From positions 2,303-66,302 of the forward strand of contig DJVP01000005.1 of NCBI GenBank assembly GCA_002441245.1: a stretch of 64,000 bases of DNA, read 5' to 3'. The notes beneath the pieces were generated by a model that was given only the letters and a program-made list of their open reading frames with translations, was not told the origin of the DNA and searched no databases. Shown here in pieces: positions 3,701-39,804 of this stretch. Position numbers and translations under genes: made by a program. The DNA comes from Candidatus Omnitrophica bacterium UBA6253. Its GTDB lineage: Bacteria; Omnitrophota; Gorgyraeia; Gygaellales; Profunditerraquicolaceae. Each line of letters opens with the position of its first letter. The stretch's first letter is position 1.

Positions 3701-3908
3701 GCCGCTGGCGATTAGTTCCGGCGCCGGAGCCGGAGCGCAGAACGCGATTGGAACGGCGGTTGTCGGGGGCATGCTTTCAGCCACATTCATCGACCTTATT
3801 TTTATCCCGCTATTTTTTATCCTCGTGACCCGCTTTTTTAAGCGTAAGCAAAAGCATCAGGTTGCTCCTGGTAATACGGATTTTAAGGAATTGCCGGATA
3901 AAGATTAA
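726..3908 (+). CDS. RND multidrug efflux pump, inner membrane permease (HAE1 / AcrB-MexB family)
   Basis: 1060 aa with 12 TM segments. The N-terminus reads MFSKFFLDRPVFAWVIAIMIMVLGG... Family motifs are present (e.g. VENVERLM, the FFFGVLPLA region). An RBS (GGAG) precedes the start. Confidence 0.95.
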   Translation: MFSKFFLDRPVFAWVIAIMIMVLGGLAIFTLPIAQYPPLAPPSIRVGCLYNGASAETVENSVTQIIEQQMTGLDKMLYMSSSSDSSGISTIELTFAPGTDPDVAWTKVQNKLQLAMARLPDSVQRRGVSVRKSTKNYLLIVGIVSEDGSMNAVDLRDYMLSVVQPVLARVPGVGEAEGFGGEYAMRIWFDPQKLTNYGLTVEDLTQALQNYNVEVSGGQFGGAPAVEGQRLNASIIVQSLLKTPEEFANIPIRINPDGSIIRIKDVGRAELGSDIDDTKVFYNKGQPSAAIAIRQEPGANALKTADAIRAKMKELSRYFPKGVKITYPYDTTPFTRVAIDEVIRTLIEAIMLVFLVMYLFMGNMRATLIPTIAVPVVLLGTFAVLGLFGYSINMLTMFAMVLAIGLLVDDAIVVVENVERLMSEEGLSPREASAKSMGQITPALVGIGLVLSAVFGPMAFFTGATGVIYRQFSVTVIAAMLLSVVVALILTPVLCATFLKPVPKGHQSAESGAWFLRSFFSWFDRIFFRIRDRYVGMVGHSFNRNARYVFFYLLIVVGMLIIFMRMPTGYLPDEDQGLLAVMGSLPSGSTLEQTETVMEKVRNYFMANEKKAVDSVLTISGQNQSGRGQNIGMAFVKLKDWNLRKKKSLKADAVADRAMKDFEKYKEALVYVFPPPAIIELGNAKGFDFELQDRSGVGHEKLMEARDQLIEMAKKDPRLTRVRANGLEDVAQYKIDLDWEKAGSLGVSISSIQDTISTAFGSSYVNDFIKDGRIKHVDIQADAPYRMLPGDLKNLYVRNSKGKMVPYASFASGHWGFGSPKLERFNAFPSINIWGEPAKGKSSGEAMQAMEELASKLPRDFGYDWTGLSYQERQSGFQAGPLYAFSILIIFLCVAALYESWSIPIVNLLMLPLGVFGATLATWMRGMPNDVYFQIGFLTTLGLSTKNAILIIQFAQQRLEHGEKLVEAILGAVRTRFRPVIMTSMAFFFGVLPLAISSGAGAGAQNAIGTAVVGGMLSATFIDLIFIPLFFILVTRFFKRKQKHQVAPGNTDFKELPDKD

Positions 3909-26173: not shown

Positions 26174-26208
26174 CTTGACAGGATAGTGGAAAATCATTAC
26201 TATAGAAA
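26174..26208 (+). promoter_or_regulatory. Sigma70-like promoter for the mscS leader
   Basis: TTGACA, then a 17-nt spacer, then TACTAT. Confidence 0.4.
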
Positions 26209-26238
26209 CAAAAGCAAAGCAGAATGAAATATTCCGGG

Positions 26239-26317
26239 TTCAGAAGTAATGATTATTTCTGAAGGGAGCATTGATGGTCGGGCCGCCATCTGATTTAAAA
26301 TCAGGTGGCGTTTTTTT
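26239..26317 (+). ncRNA. Structured 5'-UTR cis-regulatory element, copy 1 (hairpin A + antiterminator/terminator), upstream of mscS
   Basis: Hairpin A is UUCAGAAGUAA-UGA-UUAUUUCUGAA (26239-26263), followed by AGGG. The 20-mer GATGGTCGGGCCGCCATCTG (26273-26292) is identical to copy 2 and contains the GAUGG/CCAUC stem. Its CCAUC is shared with the terminator hairpin CCAUCUGAUUU-AAA-AAUCAGGUGG plus U7 (26286-26317). The element ends about 40 nt before the mscS start. Confidence 0.6.
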
Positions 26318-26356
26318 ATTTTTACGATATTCTTGGAAATGAATTCAGGAGAAATT

Positions 26357-27409
26357 ATGAACGGAATAATACTTGAGCAGGTTTTTTTAGGAAATAAAAT
26401 ATCGGATTATTTGATATCCGCTGTAGCTTTACTGGCCAGTTTTATGGTCATTAATATTTTTAAACGGCATTTCATAAAACGCCTTAAGAAAATCGCAGAA
26501 AGGACAACTACCACAGTAGATGATTTTCTGGTAAAGGTCATTGAAAAACTCGCCGTTCCTTTCTTATATCTGGTTGCTGTTTATACCATAGTAAAGAATT
26601 TTGCATTGTATCCTTACGTTGAACGCGGTATGAATTATTTAGGTTTTGCCGTTGTAATTGTTTTCGTTGCGCGTTTTGTTATTATGCTTGTTGGGTATGG
26701 TTTTAAAATATACCTGGCCAAAAATAGTAATGATGTTACTCTTGAGCACAGTCTCCAGGGTGTATTGATAGTGATAAAAGTATTGGTTTGGGGCGGCGCA
26801 ATCATCTTTTCTTTAGATAATCTTGGTTTTAAAATCTCAGCGATTATAGCAGGTTTGGGCATTGGCGGCGTGGCTGTGGCATTGGCGGCGCAGACTATCT
26901 TGAAAGATCTCTTCAGCTATTTTTCCATAATCTTTGATCAACCTTTTAAAGTCGGGGATTTCATTATAGTCGGAGACTATATGGGGACGATAGAATATAT
27001 CGGCATAAAGACAACGCGTATCCGCAGCCTGGGAGGGGAGATGCTCGTTTTTTCCAACTCGGATCTTACGGATTCGCGGTTACGTAATTATAAGTTAATG
27101 GAAAAAAGGCGGGTTGTGTTTAAATTAGGGGTTGTTTACCAGGTGCCCACTAAACAATTAAAAGAGTTGCCGAAAATTATAGAAGGAATTATAAAAAATA
27201 CAAAGGATGCAGTCTTTGACCGGGCCCATTTTTGTGCTTACGGAGATTTCAGTTTGATATTCGAAGTAGTATATTATGTGGTTGGTTCTGATTATAATAA
27301 ATATATGGATGTCCAGCAGGAGATTAATTTTTCCATTAAAGAAGAGTTTGAAAAAAGGGGTATCGAATTTGCATATCCAACTCAGACCCTTTATGTTAAT
27401 AAAAACTGA
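26357..27409 (+). CDS. mscS: Mechanosensitive ion channel, MscS family
   Basis: Pore-lining TM3 motif (IAGLGIGGVAVALAAQTILKDLFSYFSIIFD) followed by the beta-domain (FKVGDFIIVGDYMGTIEYIGIKTTRIRSLGGEMLVFSNSDL). Start set at the ATG 5 nt after AGGAG; the ORF track begins earlier at a TTG. Confidence 0.85.
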   Translation: MNGIILEQVFLGNKISDYLISAVALLASFMVINIFKRHFIKRLKKIAERTTTTVDDFLVKVIEKLAVPFLYLVAVYTIVKNFALYPYVERGMNYLGFAVVIVFVARFVIMLVGYGFKIYLAKNSNDVTLEHSLQGVLIVIKVLVWGGAIIFSLDNLGFKISAIIAGLGIGGVAVALAAQTILKDLFSYFSIIFDQPFKVGDFIIVGDYMGTIEYIGIKTTRIRSLGGEMLVFSNSDLTDSRLRNYKLMEKRRVVFKLGVVYQVPTKQLKELPKIIEGIIKNTKDAVFDRAHFCAYGDFSLIFEVVYYVVGSDYNKYMDVQQEINFSIKEEFEKRGIEFAYPTQTLYVNKN

Positions 27410-27432
27410 TTCTGAAGAAAGGAGCAAGAAAG

Positions 27433-28434
27433 ATGGACTGGAAAGAAGGAGTTCCTAATCCCAATGATATTATTGATGCAGGTAAGAAGAAATTTGGCGA
27501 TTTTTTAAAGTTCCTGCCTTTGGTAATTGTTGGTTTTTTTATACTGGCAGGCTTAAGGGGGGTAATTTATTCCATAGGGCCAGACGAGGTAGGCGTAATT
27601 CAAAGGTTTGGTAAATACATTGCCTTAAGTTCACCTGGGCTGCACGCAAAAATACCCTTTGGGATAGATAAGGTGATGCCGATTAAAGTAGAAAAGGTTT
27701 TCAAAGAGGAATTCGGGTTTAAGACCATAGAGCCGGGGCGCAGGACAACATATTCCGCGCGTAAATATGAGGATGAATCATTGATGCTTACCGGAGACTT
27801 GAATATACTAGATGTGCGCTGGATAGTACAGTTTAAGATAAAAGATCCGGTAAAATTGCTTTTCGCTACACGTCACCCCGAAGATAATATACACGACATT
27901 TCCGAAGTAGTTATGCGGCGTTTTGTCGGGGATTATTCTGTAGATGAAGTCCTTACTACTAAAAGAGAAGAGATAGATGATTTGGCGCAGCAAGAGATTC
28001 AGCGTATACTTGATAATTATAATGTTGGAGTGCATATAGTTACGGTTAAGCTATTGGATGTTAATCCTCCTGAGGCGGTAAAGTCCGCATTTAACGAAGT
28101 AAATGAGGCTAAACAGGAAAAAGAAAAGATGATTAACCAAGCTTGGGAAGCATATAATAAAGTTATTCCTAAGGCCAAGGGTACAGCAGAAAAGACTATC
28201 CGTGAATCAGAGGGTTATGCTATGGATAAGATAAACCGTGCAAGGGGGGAATCAGCCAGATTCCTTGCTACCTTAGAGGAGTATAAGAAAGCCCCGGATA
28301 TAACTAAAAAGAGGCTGTATTTAGAAACTTTGACGCAAGTTTTTCCTAACGCAAAAGAGAAATACATAATTGATTCGCAGCAAAAATCAATTCTACCTCT
28401 TTTGGATATTAACAAGAAAGGAGGGCAGCAGTAA
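27433..28434 (+). CDS. hflK: FtsH protease modulator HflK (SPFH/band-7)
   Basis: N-terminal TM, then GVIQRFGKY...SPGLHAKIPF and the SPFH domain. Paired with hflC. Confidence 0.9.
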   Translation: MDWKEGVPNPNDIIDAGKKKFGDFLKFLPLVIVGFFILAGLRGVIYSIGPDEVGVIQRFGKYIALSSPGLHAKIPFGIDKVMPIKVEKVFKEEFGFKTIEPGRRTTYSARKYEDESLMLTGDLNILDVRWIVQFKIKDPVKLLFATRHPEDNIHDISEVVMRRFVGDYSVDEVLTTKREEIDDLAQQEIQRILDNYNVGVHIVTVKLLDVNPPEAVKSAFNEVNEAKQEKEKMINQAWEAYNKVIPKAKGTAEKTIRESEGYAMDKINRARGESARFLATLEEYKKAPDITKKRLYLETLTQVFPNAKEKYIIDSQQKSILPLLDINKKGGQQ

Positions 28435-29393
28435 TGAGGACATTACGTTTAATTATTGGGTTTTTTGCGGTATTATTAGCTATTATATTGCTTTTGTTTG
28501 CCTTCGGCGCGATATATATAATCGAAGAAGGAAAACAGGCGGTTGTTACGCAATTCGGAAAACCCGTGGGCAACCCGATTACCTCGGCTGGCCTGCATTT
28601 TAAGCAGCCATTAATTCAGGAAGTGCATTATTTTGAGAAGAGGCTGTTAGATTGGGACGGAGACCCAAACCAGATACCTACTAAAGATAAAAAATATATC
28701 TGGGTGGATACTACTGCCCGATGGAAAATTGTAGATGCTTTGAAATTCCTGCAGTCAGTAGGCAATGAAATGAGTGCTCAGGGCAGGATCGATGATATCA
28801 TAAACTCCGCAACCAGGGATATAATTACCAGCCATCTTTTGGTTGAAGCGGTAAGGGATTCTAACCGTATTTTGGAGTCCAGAGTAGAAGGTGAGGATAT
28901 GATTGTTACGGATGAGGCATTAGAACGTATTGAAGTAGGCAGAAAAATGCTGGAGAGCGCAATTTTAGAAAAAGCAAAAGTTCTTGCCCCCCAATATGGT
29001 ATTGATATTGTTGATGTGCGTATTAAACGCGTAAATTATGTAGAAGATGTGCGTAATAAAGTTTATGATCGTATGATTGCCGAAAGAAAGCGTGCCGCAG
29101 AGAAATATCGTTCCGAAGGCCAGGGAAAATCTGCTGAGATAGAGGGGCAGGTAGCCAAGGAATTAAAGGCTATTACTTCGGAGGCCTACCGTCAGGCGCA
29201 GATTATTACCGGTAAGGCGGATGCCGAAGCAATCAGTATATATGCTAGCGCATACAGTCAGGATTCCGATTTTTATTCTTTTATGAAAACACTGGAAACT
29301 TACAGAACTACTATTGATGAAAAATCTACGATAATATTGACTACCGACAGTGAATATTATAAATATATAAAGTCCTTGGATGCTTCGAAATAG
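28434..29393 (+). CDS. hflC: FtsH protease modulator HflC (SPFH/band-7)
   Basis: N-terminal TM, AVVTQFGKPVG...AGLHFKQPLIQ, and the SPFH domain. Its start overlaps the hflK stop (ATGA). Confidence 0.9.
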   Translation: MRTLRLIIGFFAVLLAIILLLFAFGAIYIIEEGKQAVVTQFGKPVGNPITSAGLHFKQPLIQEVHYFEKRLLDWDGDPNQIPTKDKKYIWVDTTARWKIVDALKFLQSVGNEMSAQGRIDDIINSATRDIITSHLLVEAVRDSNRILESRVEGEDMIVTDEALERIEVGRKMLESAILEKAKVLAPQYGIDIVDVRIKRVNYVEDVRNKVYDRMIAERKRAAEKYRSEGQGKSAEIEGQVAKELKAITSEAYRQAQIITGKADAEAISIYASAYSQDSDFYSFMKTLETYRTTIDEKSTIILTTDSEYYKYIKSLDASK

Positions 29394-32809: not shown

Positions 32810-33084
32810 CTCCTAGAACCAGTATCCAGGTTTTATTGCCTTACGGCAGCAAAGATTTGTATGTTACAGCAGGCTGCAAGAGTAAGCGGGTCGGCAATTC
32901 TTAACCAAAATGCGAAATGCCGGGTGTAATCTGTGCTATTCTAAAGGCTTAAGGCATCGTGTTTACCGGGCCATATCAAATTCTATCTTAATCCCTATGC
33001 AATAATGAGAATATCTCTTTAATTATCCGGGGGCTTTCTGCAAAATTTATTCTTAATTCACGAAAGATATATGTCTTGAGGTAT

Positions 33085-33102
33085 TAACTGGAAGTGATAT
33101 AA
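33085..33102 (+). promoter_or_regulatory. Promoter -10 region (TATAAT) for the otsA operon leader
   Basis: TATAAT at 33097-33102, with TTGAGG about 17 nt upstream. Confidence 0.4.
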
Positions 33103-33128
33103 TATGTAAGAATAAAGTTAGTAAGTGG

Positions 33129-33213
33129 TCCGGAAGTACTCTAGGGTATTTCTGGAGGGGTTTTTTGATGGTCGGGCCGCCATCTGGTTTAATAATCAGA
33201 TGACGGTTTTGTT
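33129..33213 (+). ncRNA. Structured 5'-UTR cis-regulatory element, copy 2, upstream of sensor-otsA/mscS/otsB/treT operon
   Basis: Hairpin A' is UCCGGAAGUA-CUCUAGGG-UAUUUCUGGA (33129-33156), with compensatory changes relative to copy 1, followed by AGGGG. The identical 20-mer GATGGTCGGGCCGCCATCTG is at 33167-33186. The terminator-like hairpin is CAUCUGGUU-UAAU-AAUCAGAUG plus a U-rich tract (33181-33213). An RBS (GAGGAG) and the ATG at 33233 follow. Confidence 0.6.
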
Positions 33214-33232: not shown

Positions 33233-35470
33233 ATGAAAAGAATTCTTCTGTTTATCTTACCTATATTAATTTTAGTAGCGCTTGGATTTGCTATTTCAGG
33301 TATTATGCAGGCTCGTTTCACAGAAGAAAAGCTTATGGATGATTTGAAAAGAAAAGCCAAGTCTGTGGATGAGAGCCTGGAGTTATCCGCAAGGTATATC
33401 CTTATTAATAACGATTTAAGGCAAGCCAATCGTTTAGTTGATAGCTTCCAGAAGAGAGAAAGGCTGCAGGGGTGTGTTATTTATAATAAGGATGGCCAAA
33501 TACTGGCTATTACTGAGCGGTTCTCTGATTTTAAACAAAGAGAAAGGCCATATCTTAAAGATATCCTATCTACTAAGAATCCGCGGGGATCTCTAGAAAA
33601 ATTTAAAGAATATTCTGTATATAGTTACATTTTGCCTGTTTTAAATGACGATGAGAGCGTGCTGGGGATGGTAGAGGTAATTTATGATACTTCTTATATG
33701 TTTTCTACTTTAACGGAACTATGGAGAAAAATAAGCGTTACCTCTATTGCACTTATTTTACTGATAGTTTTAACTGCCTTATTAATCCAAAGGCAGATTT
33801 TTATTGTTCCTGTGCGCAGGTTAACCCAATGGTTTACGCATTTCCAGAGAGGGGAAACTGATAAATTGCAGCCATTTGAAGAAAAAGGTGAATTCGGAAA
33901 ACTCATTAGTGAAGTAGAGCAGGTTGCCTTAAGCATAAGAGTGGCCCGCCGTACCATGTCTGATGAAGCGCATGTCCGGTTGCAAAAAGAAGAACTTTGG
34001 ACTGAAGCTAAACTTAAAGATCTTATCCATGCAAAGCTGGGAAATAATTCACTATTTGTGGTTTCCAACAGAGAGCCATATATGCATGTTTTCGATGATG
34101 CCCTGGGTAAGGAGATATGTATAAGGCCGGCAAGCGGAGTTGTCACTGCGATACATCCTATACTTTCAGCATGCGGCGGTACATGGATTGCTCATGGCAG
34201 CGGTAATTCCGATAGAAAATTTGTTAATTCTAAAGATAAACTCGGTGTTCCCCCTGAAGATAACCGGTATATCCTTAAGAGAGTATGGCTTAATAAAGAG
34301 GAGGAACAAGGCTATTATTACGGTTTTTCTAATGAAGGTTTATGGCCCTTATGCCATAATACGCACACACGTCCAATTTTTAAAGAATCTGATTGGCGTA
34401 TGTATAAAGAAGTAAATCAGAAGTTTGCGGATAGTGTTTTGAGTGAGTTGCCAGCCAGCAGTCCGTTTATATTTGTACAGGATTACCATTTTACTCTTCT
34501 CCCAAAGATGATAAAAGATAAGCGTCCGGATGCAAAAGTAGCCTTATTCTGGCATATCCCCTGGCCTACTCCCGAAGCCTTTATGATTTGCCCTTATCAA
34601 AATGAAATTCTAGAGGGAATGTTGGGTTGCGATTTGATTGGTTTCCATGTCCAGAATCATTGTAATAATTTTCTTGATACCGCTAATCGCCTGCTTGAGT
34701 CACGCGTAGATACTGAAAGATTCAGCGTTGTGCGTTCGGGAAAAGAAACTTTTATAAGAGCTTTTCCTATAAGCATTAACGCGCATATAGAAGATGGCTC
34801 ATTCAAGGTTGATCCGATAAGGCAGGTGGAAAAGTTGAAAAAAGAGTTTGAACTTAAAAATGAGATTATTGCTGTGGGTGTAGATAGGATTGATTACACT
34901 AAAGGTATAGTTGAGAGAATCTTGGCGATAGACAGGTTTCTAGATAAATATCCTGAATATAAAAAGAAATTTGTTTTTATCCAATTGGCCGCTCCAAGCC
35001 GTACGCATATTAAGCGTTATCACGATTTAATTGGAGAAATTGATGAATTAGTTGAAAAGATTAACTGGAAGCATATAGATGGTAATTGGAAGCCGATAAT
35101 TTATCTCAAAAAGCATTTTTCCCAAGACGATATTCAGCCTTATTATAAACTTGGTGATATTTGTATAGTTAGTTCACTGCATGACGGAATGAATTTAGTG
35201 GCTAAAGAGTATGTTGCGGAGAAGGATGATCTGTCCGGGGCTTTAATCTTAAGTCAATTTACCGGAGCAGCGCGTGAACTTACTGATGCTATCATGGTTA
35301 ATCCATATTCGATTGAAGAGTTTGCCGATAGCATAAGGCTGGCAGTCCAGATGCCTAAGGAGGAGAAGCGGAGGCGTATGGAGAATATGCGCCAGGTGAT
35401 AGCTGAAAACAATATTTACCGTTGGGCAGCAAATATTATTACCGAGTTGGTTGCATTAAAGAAAATATAA
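33233..35470 (+). CDS. otsA: Trehalose-6-phosphate synthase (OtsA, GT20) fused to an N-terminal membrane sensor module (TM - periplasmic domain - TM - HAMP-like)
   Basis: Residues 1-260 contain TM1, an approximately 140-aa extracytoplasmic domain, TM2 and a HAMP-like amphipathic linker. GT20 follows (LFVVSNREPY, WPLCH, FVQDYHFTLLP, WHIPWP, VGVDRIDYTKG). Confidence 0.85.
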   Translation: MKRILLFILPILILVALGFAISGIMQARFTEEKLMDDLKRKAKSVDESLELSARYILINNDLRQANRLVDSFQKRERLQGCVIYNKDGQILAITERFSDFKQRERPYLKDILSTKNPRGSLEKFKEYSVYSYILPVLNDDESVLGMVEVIYDTSYMFSTLTELWRKISVTSIALILLIVLTALLIQRQIFIVPVRRLTQWFTHFQRGETDKLQPFEEKGEFGKLISEVEQVALSIRVARRTMSDEAHVRLQKEELWTEAKLKDLIHAKLGNNSLFVVSNREPYMHVFDDALGKEICIRPASGVVTAIHPILSACGGTWIAHGSGNSDRKFVNSKDKLGVPPEDNRYILKRVWLNKEEEQGYYYGFSNEGLWPLCHNTHTRPIFKESDWRMYKEVNQKFADSVLSELPASSPFIFVQDYHFTLLPKMIKDKRPDAKVALFWHIPWPTPEAFMICPYQNEILEGMLGCDLIGFHVQNHCNNFLDTANRLLESRVDTERFSVVRSGKETFIRAFPISINAHIEDGSFKVDPIRQVEKLKKEFELKNEIIAVGVDRIDYTKGIVERILAIDRFLDKYPEYKKKFVFIQLAAPSRTHIKRYHDLIGEIDELVEKINWKHIDGNWKPIIYLKKHFSQDDIQPYYKLGDICIVSSLHDGMNLVAKEYVAEKDDLSGALILSQFTGAARELTDAIMVNPYSIEEFADSIRLAVQMPKEEKRRRMENMRQVIAENNIYRWAANIITELVALKKI

Positions 35471-35484
35471 CTTATGAGGGGTAA

Positions 35485-36540
35485 ATGGAAGAAAATTTAT
35501 TCTTAAGACTTCCTGATTTAGCTGAAAAGTTTATGCCATTGTTTATTTTTTTGGTAGTTTTATCTATAGGGTTAATTCTTAAGTGGATAATCTTTAATCG
35601 TTTTTTACATTGGGCCAAGAAAGCATCTACGCAACTTGATGATATTATTATGCGAGCAATTAAGGGGCCGTTTATGGTTTTATGCCTGATGTTAAGTTTG
35701 TATTTTGCCCTGCAATTCTCAAAATTACCAGAAAATATTGTGCATGTTATAAGTAAAAGCATACTTATACTGGGGATAATTTCTGTAATGTTAGCATCGG
35801 CGAATTTGCTATCCGGGATGATAAAAACTTATGCCACCAGGGTTGATTCCGCCTTGGCTGTTACCAGCCTTACTCAGAATATTGCCAGGATTTTTGTTTT
35901 TTCAATCGGCACATTAATAATTCTTAACAGCTTGGGCATATCCATAACTCCCATATTAGCAACTTTGGGAGTGGGTGGTTTAGCAGTTGCCTTGGCCCTC
36001 CAGGATACCTTGACAAATCTTTTTGCAGGTTTTCATATCACTATTGTAAAACAGGTAAGGGTCGGTGATTATATTAAATTGGAAACAGGAGAAGAAGGCT
36101 ATGTGGTTGATATTAACTGGCGTTCAACAAAGATCAAGATGTTGGCCAATAATCTTGTTCTCGTACCGAACGATAAATTAAATAAAGCCATTGTTACCAA
36201 TTATTTCTTGCCAGATAAGGAAATGTCAGTTTTGATTGATCTGGGAGTGCATTATAAAAGCGACCTGGAGAAAGTGGAGAGGGTTACTTCTGAGGTGGCC
36301 AAATCCGTTATGACAGAGGTAAACGGCGGGGTTGCCTATTTTGAGCCGTTTATCCGCTATCATACATTTGGGGATTCCGGCATAAAGTTTACAGTTATAT
36401 TAAGGGTTAAGGAATTTGTTGATCAGTATCTGATAAAGCATGAGTTTATTAAAAGGTTGCACAAGCGCTATATCAAAGAAGAGATTGGGATCCCTTATCC
36501 TGTAAGGGCGATAAACTATGAACAGGAGAAAGTAGCTTGA
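35485..36540 (+). CDS. Mechanosensitive ion channel, MscS family (second copy)
   Basis: TM3 pore motif (LATLGVGGLAVALALQDTLTNLFAGFHITIV) and beta-domain (VRVGDYIKLETGEEGYVVDINWRSTKIKMLANNLVLVPNDKL). It lies 14 bp after otsA. Confidence 0.85.
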   Translation: MEENLFLRLPDLAEKFMPLFIFLVVLSIGLILKWIIFNRFLHWAKKASTQLDDIIMRAIKGPFMVLCLMLSLYFALQFSKLPENIVHVISKSILILGIISVMLASANLLSGMIKTYATRVDSALAVTSLTQNIARIFVFSIGTLIILNSLGISITPILATLGVGGLAVALALQDTLTNLFAGFHITIVKQVRVGDYIKLETGEEGYVVDINWRSTKIKMLANNLVLVPNDKLNKAIVTNYFLPDKEMSVLIDLGVHYKSDLEKVERVTSEVAKSVMTEVNGGVAYFEPFIRYHTFGDSGIKFTVILRVKEFVDQYLIKHEFIKRLHKRYIKEEIGIPYPVRAINYEQEKVA

Positions 36541-36546
36541 TATAAA

Positions 36547-37344
36547 ATGCGCCATGTTTTTAATGATCTGGAAAATATAAAAATAAGTTTAGCGGATAAA
36601 TATTTATATTTATTTCTTGATTACGATGGGACGTTAGCTCCTATTGCTGGTACCCCGGATAAAGCGATAATTCCGCAAAGGACAAAAAGGTTACTTGATT
36701 TACTGTCAAAAAAAAATAATTGCAGAATAGCAGTTATTAGTGGCAGGGCCTTGGCTGACATAAAGAAAAGAATTGGTCTTAAAAATGTAATTTATTCAGG
36801 TAATCATGGTTTTCAAATAGACGGTCCGAAGATTAAGCATGGGTTGCCAGTTTCTCCGGCGTATAAAAAGGCATTGTTGCGCATTAAAACCCAGCTTAAG
36901 GAAAAGCTTTCCGGTACAAAAGGAATCTTTATCGAGGATAAAGGATTTTCGTTAGCACTGCATTTCAGGCTTGTTGATAAGGGGGAGCTTTCCTTTGTTA
37001 AAACCATCTTCCGTAAGAGTATTGTTCCATATTTAATAAGAAATAAGATTAAGATTAGGCCTGGCAAGAAAGTTCTTGAAGTAATGCCGCCAGTGGATTG
37101 GGATAAAGGGAAAGTTGTTTTGTGGCTTTTAACAAGGCAGATCCTTGCGTTTAAGAAAAAAAACATTTTTCCTGTTTATATCGGTGACGATGTAACTGAC
37201 GAAGATGCATTCAGGGCGTTAAAGGGGAAAGGTCTGACGATATTTGTTGGCAAACCCGGGAATTCTAAAGCGGATTACTACTTAAAGAATGCAGAAGAAG
37301 TAGTTAAATTCATGCGTTTAATAGGGGATTTAAAACTTAACTGA
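36547..37344 (+). CDS. otsB: Trehalose-6-phosphate phosphatase (OtsB, HAD-IIB)
   Basis: HAD motif I is FLDYDGTLAP. Motif III/IV is GDDVTDEDAF. Size matches OtsB. Confidence 0.85.
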   Translation: MRHVFNDLENIKISLADKYLYLFLDYDGTLAPIAGTPDKAIIPQRTKRLLDLLSKKNNCRIAVISGRALADIKKRIGLKNVIYSGNHGFQIDGPKIKHGLPVSPAYKKALLRIKTQLKEKLSGTKGIFIEDKGFSLALHFRLVDKGELSFVKTIFRKSIVPYLIRNKIKIRPGKKVLEVMPPVDWDKGKVVLWLLTRQILAFKKKNIFPVYIGDDVTDEDAFRALKGKGLTIFVGKPGNSKADYYLKNAEEVVKFMRLIGDLKLN

Positions 37345-37346
37345 TT

Positions 37347-38018
37347 ATGCCGGAATTAATAAAGGCAAAAGAGCCGTTTAGGTTTTGTACAAGATTGCAT
37401 TTATCAGAGCTGACCGGATTACGGGCTACTACTTTAGGCCAGCTTTTAGTCCTTATTAAGGAAGTGCCTGGTTCATGTATCTATCACCATACGCATAGGT
37501 TCTTGCAGCAGCATCAGTATCTTTCTCCTGAGCCTCCTAACGACTTCGCCTACTGGGTAACGGATATCCTTGGAGAAGATGAACTTGGAGAAAGGCTGGT
37601 TAGTATCGATACTATGCAATATTCAACTATCCGTGATCTTCGCGATAAGATTGCTTTGACTATTGAGGATTGTTTACGGGATAGCCCGTTCGCTAAATTG
37701 AAATTTGCCAGATCCGGGGAAGAGTTCCATTTCATGAAGTCGGTCAGTTTTATCCTGCCGACAAACTATTTTGTTTATGATCTGGAGGAATTTGCAAAGG
37801 TTTTAAAGAAAATTACCATTGATTCTATTTATTTCCATATTTTTGAAGCGCGCCTTAGGCTCGAAAAATCAACGAATGACTTTTCATATTGGATAGAAAA
37901 CTCTTTGGGGGATAAGGAATTAGCGGATAAGATTTCCGGTTTTGATCCCTATACCCGTACTTTGGAGGATTTAAGAAATAAGATTATCCAAATAGTAGAA
38001 AGAAGGATAACCGATTAA
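37347..38018 (+). CDS. Hypothetical protein with internal tandem duplication (2 x ~100 aa), trehalose-operon associated
   Basis: Repeat signature is F[RH]F...IY.H...NDF[AS]YW..LG..EL...D....T..DLR.KI. It occurs twice, at residues 11-110 and 118-220. Confidence 0.5.
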   Translation: MPELIKAKEPFRFCTRLHLSELTGLRATTLGQLLVLIKEVPGSCIYHHTHRFLQQHQYLSPEPPNDFAYWVTDILGEDELGERLVSIDTMQYSTIRDLRDKIALTIEDCLRDSPFAKLKFARSGEEFHFMKSVSFILPTNYFVYDLEEFAKVLKKITIDSIYFHIFEARLRLEKSTNDFSYWIENSLGDKELADKISGFDPYTRTLEDLRNKIIQIVERRITD

Positions 38019-39233
38019 ATGGCGAAAATAGAAGAGTATATACCCTTAGTGGGGCAAGCAGTTATCGATGATTTAAGATTGCTTAGCGAACGGTTGAAAG
38101 GTAAGGTGATCCAGCATATAAATTCTACTCCTGTAGGAGGCGGGGTTGCGGAGATATTAAGCCGCATGGTGCCTTTATTAAGGGAATTAGGAGTAGATAC
38201 GAAATGGGATGTAATAAAAGGGGGAGAGCAATTTTTTGGAGTTACAAAGAAATTTCATAATTCCTTGCATGGCAGGGCTGAAGAAATAACTCAAAGGGAT
38301 TTTGAGATATTTATGGAAACGAGCCAGCAGAATATTGAGAGTGTCAATGCTTATGGGGATATAGTTTTTGTCCATGACCCGCAGCCAATAGCCTTGATAA
38401 AAAAGAAAGCTGATAATAAATGGCTTTGGCGTTGCCATATTGATGTAGCCAGTCCTAATGAAAAAGTCTGGGGATTCCTTATGGATTTTATACCTCGTTA
38501 CGATTCAGCAGTATTTTCCGCTCCTGCTTTTTCACGGAGATTACCTATTAGGCAATTCTTAATCCCTCCTTCCATTGATCCGCTAAGCGATAAAAATAAA
38601 GAGTTGCCGCAGGAAACAATAAACTTTGTTTTAAGAAAATACAATATCAAGAAAGATAAGCCTATTGTTATTCAAATCTCCCGCTTTGATCGTTTAAAAG
38701 ACCCTGTAGGCGTAATTGAGGCATATTTGCAAGTAAAGAAATACATTGATTGTCAATTGATTTTGGCTGGCGGATCAGCAGAGGATGATCCCGAGGGATT
38801 TAAGGTTTTAGAGGAAGTTAAGGAAAGAGCCAAGAAAGACCCGGATATCCATATTTTATTATTACCTCAAAATGATATAGAGGTTAATGCATTGCAGAGA
38901 GCTTCAGATGTAATTGTTCAAAAGTCCCTAAAGGAAGGATTCGGCTTAACTGTATCTGAGGCTTTGTGGAAAGCAAAGCCAGTTGTAGCTTCAAATGTTG
39001 GAGGTATTCCCTTGCAAATAAAACATAAATATTCAGGTTTACTCTGCCATTCAATCGAAGGGGCCAGTTTTGCCATAAAACAACTCTTAAGCAGCCCGGC
39101 TTACGCCAGTAAATTGGGGGAAAATGGGCGTGAGCATATAAAAAATAATTTCTTGATTACGCGTCATTTAAGAGATTATATGTTGTTGTTTCTTTCATTG
39201 TATCATCCTGAGGATATCGTTAATCTCTGCTGA
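38019..39233 (+). CDS. treT: Trehalose glycosyltransferring synthase TreT (GT4; NDP-glucose + glucose -> trehalose)
   Basis: Near-colinear with archaeal TreT over the full length: HINSTPVGGGVAEIL, VHDPQPIALI, WLWRCHID, PPSIDPLSDKNKEL, ISRFDRLKDP, AGGSAEDDPEG, LKEGFGLTVSEALWK. Confidence 0.85.
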   Translation: MAKIEEYIPLVGQAVIDDLRLLSERLKGKVIQHINSTPVGGGVAEILSRMVPLLRELGVDTKWDVIKGGEQFFGVTKKFHNSLHGRAEEITQRDFEIFMETSQQNIESVNAYGDIVFVHDPQPIALIKKKADNKWLWRCHIDVASPNEKVWGFLMDFIPRYDSAVFSAPAFSRRLPIRQFLIPPSIDPLSDKNKELPQETINFVLRKYNIKKDKPIVIQISRFDRLKDPVGVIEAYLQVKKYIDCQLILAGGSAEDDPEGFKVLEEVKERAKKDPDIHILLLPQNDIEVNALQRASDVIVQKSLKEGFGLTVSEALWKAKPVVASNVGGIPLQIKHKYSGLLCHSIEGASFAIKQLLSSPAYASKLGENGREHIKNNFLITRHLRDYMLLFLSLYHPEDIVNLC

Positions 39234-39804
39234 ATTGGGGGGGGTCGAAGTTTCTCGTTTTTGAAGGATTTAGGTGGCCGGGTTGTCATCTTATATCTAA
39301 ATGCAGGATGGTTTAAAAAATAAAAGGGTATTAACAGGAGGATGCACTTGTATTTTGACAGGGGTATTTGGTAATTTTTACGCTTACCTATAACATTAGG
39401 CAATAGGGGTGAGGATTGAAACTGGGCGGTTGGATTTTTATGGTTGTTTCGTGGAGCTTTATCATAGGCTTGTTTATATTCTGTTATAGCCGCATATTTA
39501 TAAAAGGGCTTGGCGGAGAAGATCCTAAAACATTAAAGCAGTCTAAGAAATAGGAGGATTCATATAGACTAATGTATTGCAAGAGCCGGTTGTATCAGCG
39601 CTTGTGATTTTGCTCCCATTCTTGTTTTTGTTTTAGCCTGCCTTTTAACTAAACCGTTTTTACTCGTCTGTTTTAGAAATAGCAAAAACCAATTCATTCA
39701 ATCGCCTCTTCGTGTTATAATTAAAAAATAAGTTTGTACGCGCCTGCCTGGTGCCAGGTAATTATTTTGATTATCGAGGGGTGTCGTAGGCAACGGAGGA
39801 TTCG

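Follow-up and report, generated by a model that had tools for sequence, protein, structure and literature searches.

Two nhaA-I riboswitch-type elements in the leaders of a mechanosensitive-channel operon and a trehalose operon of an uncultured Omnitrophota genome

Composition of the locus and its two leaders

The analyzed window, here meaning the whole stretch of 64,000 nucleotides, carries two operons of osmoadaptation genes on the forward strand (Table 1). Operon 1 is composed of mscS and two genes of the SPFH/Band 7 type. Operon 2 contains a Cache-domain otsA, a second mscS, otsB, a gene of the DUF5752 family and treT. The named genes of an initial annotation, which was made from the sequence alone, agree with the Pfam assignments, although it had omitted both SPFH genes and DUF5752. 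As the latter is flanked by otsB and treT, operon 2 holds two trehalose routes (OtsA/OtsB and TreT). The encoded OtsA of 745 aa is a fusion of a trehalose-6-phosphate synthase (GT20) with a membrane-anchored, Cache-like domain at its N-terminus, the latter giving weak Pfam matches to dCache_1/sCache_3_2. According to this domain composition it would be a sensor-coupled OtsA.

The window was 100% identical to a contig of the Logan assembly across 8.2 kb, and with two NCBI MAG contigs it shared 99-99.7% identity. Stretches of 1.4-6.8 kb shared 75-82% identity with the Candidatus Omnitrophota MAGs L079, L056, L080, L075 and L083. In L002, which represents nearly the same strain, otsB was apparently absent and mscS was shorter.

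Table 1. Positions of the leader elements, genes and further features within the window
Feature	Position	Strand	Details
Promoter-like site, leader 1	26175-26203	+	TTGACA-17-TACTAT; 10/12 consensus positions; consensus match only
Copy 1 leader	26236-26317	+	upstream of mscS; ~85 nt
Copy 1 nhaA-I aptamer	26236-26291	+	RF03057 match
Copy 1 GGGU	26236-26239	+	
Copy 1 P1	26240-26262	+	UCAGAAGUAA / UUAUUUCUGA; 10-11 bp
Copy 1 AGGG	26263-26266	+	AGG at 26263-65
Copy 1 P2	26273-26290	+	GAUGGU/GCCAUC; loop CGGGCC
Intrinsic terminator, leader 1	stem 26284-26310; U7 26311-17	+	CGCCAUCUGAU / AUCAGGUGGCG + U7; 12 pairs
RBS of mscS	26347-51	+	AGGAG
Operon 1	26357-29393	+	mscS, SPFH/Band 7, SPFH/Band 7 (Pfam)
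mscS, operon 1	26357-27409	+	ATG at 26357; Pfam
SPFH/Band 7, first	27433-28434	+	Pfam
SPFH/Band 7, second	28434-29393	+	Pfam
Promoter-like site, leader 2	33076-33103	+	TTGAGG-16-TG-n-TATAAT; extended -10 TG; putative
Copy 2 leader	33126-33213	+	upstream of Cache-OtsA; ~85 nt
Copy 2 nhaA-I aptamer	33126-33185	+	RF03057 match
Copy 2 UGGU	33126-29	+	GGGU in copy 1
Copy 2 P1	33130-33155	+	CCGGAAGUAC / GUAUUUCUGG
Copy 2 AGGG	33156-59	+	AGG at 33156-58
Copy 2 P2	33167-33184	+	
Intrinsic terminator, leader 2	33177-33213	+	CCGCCAUCUGGUU / AAUCAGAUGACGG + UUUUGUU; stem to 33206
Operon 2	33233-39233	+	Cache-OtsA, mscS, otsB, DUF5752, treT (Pfam)
Cache-domain otsA	33233-35470	+	ATG at 33233; Pfam
mscS, operon 2	35485-36540	+	Pfam
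otsB	36547-37344	+	Pfam
DUF5752	37347-38018	+	between otsB and treT
treT	38019-39233	+	Pfam
nhaA-I-like element 3	39241-39291	+	model R1, filters off: 20 bits, E about 1e-4
45-aa hydrophobic peptide ORF	39416-39553	+	MKLGGWIFMVVSWSFIIGLFIFCYSRIFIKGLGGEDPKTLKQSKK
TPP riboswitch RF00059	44428-44541	+	59.3 bits; gathering score 54.3

The leaders of both operons share one element that consists of a 5' GGGU or UGGU, a first hairpin (P1), an AGGG linker and a second hairpin (P2). The two shared hairpins and the AGGG next to P1 had already been recognized in the initial annotation. At the base of P1 the U-A pair of copy 1 is C-G in copy 2 and the A-U pair is G.U, which confirmed the compensatory changes described before. 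The stem of P2 had been given as GAUGG/CCAUC with a loop of 8 nt. The five pairs were found again, but the Rfam model adds U.G as a sixth pair and leaves a loop of 6 nt. The identical block of 20 nt that had been noted in both copies, GATGGTCGGGCCGCCATCTG, occurred exactly twice in the window, where none was expected by chance even with three mismatches allowed. A motif search of the window for the P2 loop gave no match beyond copies 1 and 2. Promoter-like hexamers, likewise noted earlier, are located upstream of each copy.

Assignment to the nhaA-I family and alternative folds of the leaders

A scan of the whole window against Rfam at gathering threshold resulted in three matches, one to the TPP riboswitch family and two to nhaA-I (RF03057, cutoff 37 bits). 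Copy 1 scored 48.3 bits (E=1.8e-6 in the whole-window scan) and copy 2 38.9 bits, each over model positions 1-55 of 55. All conserved nucleotides of the family (GGU, AGG and UGGUCGGGCCGCCA in P2) were present in both copies, and both occupy the leader position 5' of osmotic-stress genes that belongs to the family. The fourth base of the linker differs from the nhaA-I consensus (AGGG versus AGGU) and is variable across relatives. With regard to other Rfam families, a permissive scan around each copy gave sub-threshold noise only, e.g. PyrR with 21.8 bits at a cutoff of 54, and the DUF1646, ydaO, fluoride, guanidine and Mn2+ families were unmatched. The DUF1646 (Na+-I) model had no match at E<=10 around either copy and at E<=1 across the window. 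Na+-I riboswitches are also built of two hairpins in a similar arrangement, use terminator platforms and have a regulon with Na+ transport and osmoprotection, but their consensus of the lower P1 and of the P2 loop differs from the window copies. The earlier statement that no Na+ riboswitch consensus could be matched was therefore correct for Na+-I, but it had overlooked the related nhaA-I class.

The nhaA-I motif was first described as a sodium-related candidate found mostly 5' of Na+/H+ antiporter genes (Weinberg et al. 2017). Binding of Li+ and activation of expression were shown for typical members, which are named Li+-I riboswitches (White et al. 2022, PMC9646797). The same study reported rare terminator-bearing variants that are turned on by Na+, named Na+-II, from Deltaproteobacteria only and 5' of hypothetical genes. 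Its Supplementary Table I lists otsA 16 times and mscS three times for 944 representatives. Since both copies match RF03057 above the gathering score, the claim of a novel RNA class in the initial annotation fails by the Rfam scan it had itself named as the refuting test. The element belongs to a riboswitch family that is already curated in Rfam, and PMC9646797 covers both the RNA class and its tie to these gene types. A search for later literature on the class yielded the two papers of 2017 and 2022 and reviews, but no further work. The stake in terms of discovery is small, as any Rfam-based annotation would name both elements. The locus rather illustrates in a clear way the coordination of compatible-solute synthesis and mechanosensitive channels by a cation riboswitch, here in the genome of an uncultured Omnitrophota bacterium. 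The hosts of nhaA-I in the original paper were Proteobacteria only (PMC9646797), and the Omnitrophota copies widen this range as a by-product of newer MAG sampling.

Both leaders contain an intrinsic terminator that uses the 3' arm of P2 as its own 5' arm, and the U-tracts end 24-40 nt before the start codons of the RBS/ATG regions. The U-tract UUUUGUU of copy 2 is weaker than the U7 of copy 1. Since it is short (UUUUG), termination at copy 2 may be inefficient. The minimum free energy fold of the full leader (ViennaRNA) combined P1 with the terminator at -29.2 kcal/mol for copy 1 and -32.7 kcal/mol for copy 2. When P2 was enforced, the terminator was gone and the energies were -18.3 and -24.0 kcal/mol, respectively. 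P2 and the terminator are thus mutually exclusive in both leaders, because forcing P2 costs 9-11 kcal/mol and abolishes the terminator, the more stable of the two states. The shared arm and the exclusive folds had been predicted in the initial annotation. Together with the RF03057 matches they bear out its proposal of a cis-regulatory riboswitch with an antiterminator/terminator platform. Both elements are very likely nhaA-I members that act as transcriptional ON switches. We infer the antitermination switch itself by analogy, from an architecture identical to that of a relative in Desulfobulbus propionicus, a terminator-bearing variant that was switched on with Na+ in single-round transcription (PMC9646797).

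Relatives, covariation and the first pair of P1

The initial annotation had proposed a search for further copies by means of a covariance model, and such relatives were found. One genome per GTDB species was scanned for GATGGYCGGGCCGCCATC, which gave at least 120 loci, of which about 85 proved to be real elements, having P1 and AGG on the 5' side. The covariance model R1 was built from 27 terminator-type relatives and then used to align the matches. In a MAFFT alignment of the aptamer sequences some 3' arms were displaced by a single column. It served solely to seed the model, and the model-based alignments were the basis of the covariation counts. Copies 1 and 2 scored 64.3 and 58.1 bits with R1, respectively.

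Among the 91 genome matches listed, all eight pairs of P1 varied on both sides (8/8), and 96.6% of the P1 cells were paired compared with 24-65% with a slid partner. The observed covariation score of P1 in this set was reached by 0 of 500 shuffles. Because fitting to the model biases the pairing counts of these alignments towards structure, the slid-partner controls are the fairer comparison. P2 was invariant in the 91 matches, since the search pattern fixed it. When the stem was left free (25 sequences, i.e. 22 from metagenomes and the three window elements), three of six P2 pairs varied on both sides, namely the outer ones, and 98% of the cells were paired.

The real elements among the matches listed were separated by the first P1 pair into 37 with G-C (GGGU-GC...GC-AGG) and 47 with a pyrimidine-purine pair (GGGU-[CU]C...G[GA]-AGG). 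The fourth linker base (AGGG or AGGU) was rejected as a marker, being variable in both subgroups. Terminators were present in 31/47 pyrimidine-purine elements versus 3/37 G-C elements among the matches listed, where the use of terminators is also linked to low G+C content. Considering assignable neighbours among the matches listed, NhaA was found downstream of 0/47 pyrimidine-purine versus 7/37 G-C elements, and OtsA, MscS or SPFH downstream of 17 versus none. The association of P1 base and gene class is indicative only, because the subgroups track lineage and G+C content and the counts are phylogenetically non-independent. Downstream genes were assigned by tblastn against Pfam-checked references. 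Automatic picking of ORFs 3' of the elements was dropped for G+C-rich genomes as it led to wrong-frame ORFs, and many neighbours of the G-C class are unassigned.

Further genes downstream of pyrimidine-purine elements among the matches listed encode OmpA-like proteins, Na+/H+ and Na+/Ca2+ exchangers, CitMHS, CLC, an Rnf/Nqr subunit and a P-type cation ATPase. In the G-C group these were a small membrane protein and TrkA. The latter group occurred in Acidobacteriota, Myxococcota and other G+C-rich genomes among the matches listed. Pyrimidine-purine elements with a terminator were mainly found in Omnitrophota, Elusimicrobiota, Planctomycetota, Nitrospirota and deltaproteobacterial MAGs, whereas the hosts of those without one include Verrucomicrobiota. 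Terminator-type nhaA-I elements therefore occur well beyond the Deltaproteobacteria of the original paper. Among the matches listed, the riboswitch type of the window is located directly 5' of MscS in seven and of SPFH in five cases of relatives. Cache-OtsA homologues follow it in six relatives, or seven elements with copy 2.

Several loci of relatives deserve description on their own. The OtsA homologues in L053, L081, L086 and others are 738-747 aa in size. Omnitrophota L083 carries one element 5' of mscS and a second one 5' of the adjoining SPFH gene (2468-2518 and 3727-3778, +), while in the window a single riboswitch serves mscS and SPFH. Tandem aptamers were present in L103 (928-979 and 1050-1101, -, ~70 nt apart) and L175 (423-475 and 509-564, +, ~35 nt apart). 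A protein of ~403 aa matching no Pfam family follows terminator-less pyrimidine-purine elements in Verrucomicrobiota (L052, L054, L059 and L088). Likewise, a membrane protein of ~119 aa matching no Pfam family follows G-C-type elements in Acidobacteriota and Planctomycetota (L026, L030, L036, L063, L066, L110 and others).

Position 54 is the sole nucleotide that was experimentally shown to tune specificity (PMC9646797). Mapped from the published construct sequences, it is the nucleotide between the 5' arm of P2 and CGGGCC. Both window copies carry U here, as does the Rfam consensus (GG-U-CGGGCC). Judged by this nucleotide only, the window copies would resemble Li+-I. Genome matches to GATGGCCGGGCCGCCATC, the version with C54, were nearly all chance occurrences inside G+C-rich coding sequence. 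Among the matches listed only two genuine C54 elements with the GAUGG stem were found, i.e. 2/47 of the subgroup. One is located in Omnitrophota 5' of a CLC chloride channel (L075 3412-3464, -) and the other in Verrucomicrobiota 5' of an MscS-type channel (L126 6747-6800, +). A pattern scan of metagenomes with the P2 stem left free gave 122 matches, mostly chance matches of G+C-rich sequence. All of the about 22 usable ones, which are real pyrimidine-purine elements, carry U and none carries C, so that C54 is rare even within this subgroup. The data suggest that the pair at the foot of P1 separates nhaA-linked from osmotic-stress-linked elements better than the published C54.

The two intact copies reported initially are accompanied by a third, diverged one that had been overlooked. 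This element 3 is located directly 3' of the treT stop codon. Its P2 reads GGUGGC/GUCAUC with the loop CGGGUU instead of CGGGCC and with C at the equivalent of position 54, P1 is weak and the U-tract is gone. At element 3 no Rfam match was obtained, and the whole-window scan at E<=1 gave no extra nhaA-I copies. It is orthologous to intact riboswitches of the Omnitrophota L056 (1319-1371, -) and L075 (3412-3464, -) and, according to its diverged sequence, it is probably a decaying remnant. In L056 (415-1339, -) the intact riboswitch precedes six membrane-peptide ORFs of 32-46 aa and then a permease. A conserved ORF for a hydrophobic peptide of 45 aa, which had no Pfam match, was found 3' of element 3 as well.

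Probable ligand and proposed mechanism

The window copies can be compared with both published types. With Li+-I they share the two-hairpin aptamer (5' GGGU, P1, AGG linker and P2 with UGGUCGGGCCGCCA) and the proposed ON logic, and the genes published in association with Li+-I include otsA and mscS. Typical Li+-I elements have G-C at the P1 base, control translation and precede nhaA in G+C-rich Proteobacteria or Acidobacteriota. In contrast, the window copies have U-A or C-G at the P1 base, intrinsic terminators and an Omnitrophota host. G-C is also found in 3/3 experimentally validated Li+-I RNAs. The window copies resemble Na+-II in that the terminator takes in the 3' arm of P2, in that nhaA is not the gene downstream and in the proposed ON logic. 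Furthermore, the Na+-selective 'hypo' RNA of D. propionicus (GGGU-CC...GG-AGG) falls into the pyrimidine-purine group like both copies. Its P2 is GUUAG-C-CGGGCC-GCUAAC with C54, whereas the window copies have U at this position (GAUGG-U-CGGG).

The initial annotation had considered an osmotic-type ligand, and from the nhaA-I membership and the controlled genes an ion of salt or osmotic stress is most probable. Based on gene context and P1-base type we favor Na+ as the signal for both copies. It is the likelier ligand because both share their subgroup with the experimentally Na+-selective Desulfobulbus representative. The U54 of both copies, as in Li+-I and not C as in Na+-II, speaks against Na+ selectivity, so that a response to Li+ or a broad one to Na+, Li+ and NH4+ takes up the remaining probability. 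In D. propionicus the mutation C54U led to a loss of Na+ selectivity, with Na+, Li+ and NH4+ all eliciting a response (PMC9646797).

It is unlikely that both copies are canonical Li+-I riboswitches with Li+ as physiological ligand and the trehalose and channel genes as a response to lithium toxicity. Li+ is scarce in groundwater-type habitats, the controlled genes are those of osmoadaptation with no Li+ exporter among them, and among the matches listed no subgroup member is followed by nhaA. Moreover, the Na+-responsive representative has the same type of P1 base and of terminator platform. This explanation is in line with U54 and with the membership in the Rfam nhaA-I family. The published study suggested otsA-linked RNAs as possible Na+-sensing variants in osmotic stress and considered that they might respond to Li+ (White et al. 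2022, PMC9646797).

A new riboswitch or attenuator class for a turgor or osmolyte metabolite (c-di-AMP, glutamate, K+) or a regulatory protein, to which the gene context would point and in favor of which there was no tool result, is highly improbable given the full-length matches to a validated cation riboswitch family, the complete set of its conserved nucleotides and the rejection of K+ by nhaA-I in published assays. That the copies sense nothing and represent a dispersed repeat or two plain terminators is equally improbable. The identical 20-mer and the decaying third copy would fit, but a two-hairpin element with covarying stems is found in the 5' leaders of the same gene families in at least six phyla, and each copy has its own promoter-like site upstream and RBS downstream.

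Returning to Na+ as signal, the P1 base might have a wider meaning. We tentatively suggest, as one of several possibilities, that the pyrimidine-purine subgroup with U54 and usually a terminator represents a distinct and widespread specificity class sensing Na+ or ionic strength. Such a class would control a salt-stress regulon of trehalose synthesis, MscS, SPFH and Na+ exchangers or pumps and range over Omnitrophota, Elusimicrobiota, Planctomycetota, Verrucomicrobiota and Nitrospirota. Na+-II would then have the P1 base as its defining feature and form a main branch of the family instead of a rare deltaproteobacterial oddity defined by C54. The P1-base feature makes the question of Li+ versus Na+ for otsA-linked riboswitches directly testable.

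In the mechanism proposed here for the two window copies, at low ligand P1 of the nascent leader would form first, followed by the terminator hairpin as the more stable structure. This hairpin would take up CCGCCAUC, the 3' arm of P2, and RNA polymerase would halt at the U-tract. A rising concentration of the monovalent cation in the cytoplasm would lead to its binding by the aptamer (GGGU, P1, AGG and P2 with the loop U-CGGGCC-G). The bound cation would hold P2 closed and sequester CCGCCAUC, so that the terminator is blocked and read-through occurs into mscS-SPFH-SPFH and into otsA-mscS-otsB-DUF5752-treT. Since the ligand is most probably Na+, the pair may form a small salt-stress regulon that combines trehalose synthesis with release valves for a later downshock. 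In E. coli, the expression of mechanosensitive channels is increased at high osmolarity, which readies the cell for downshock. The induction of MscS and trehalose synthesis under salt stress, as proposed for the window, would fit this behavior.
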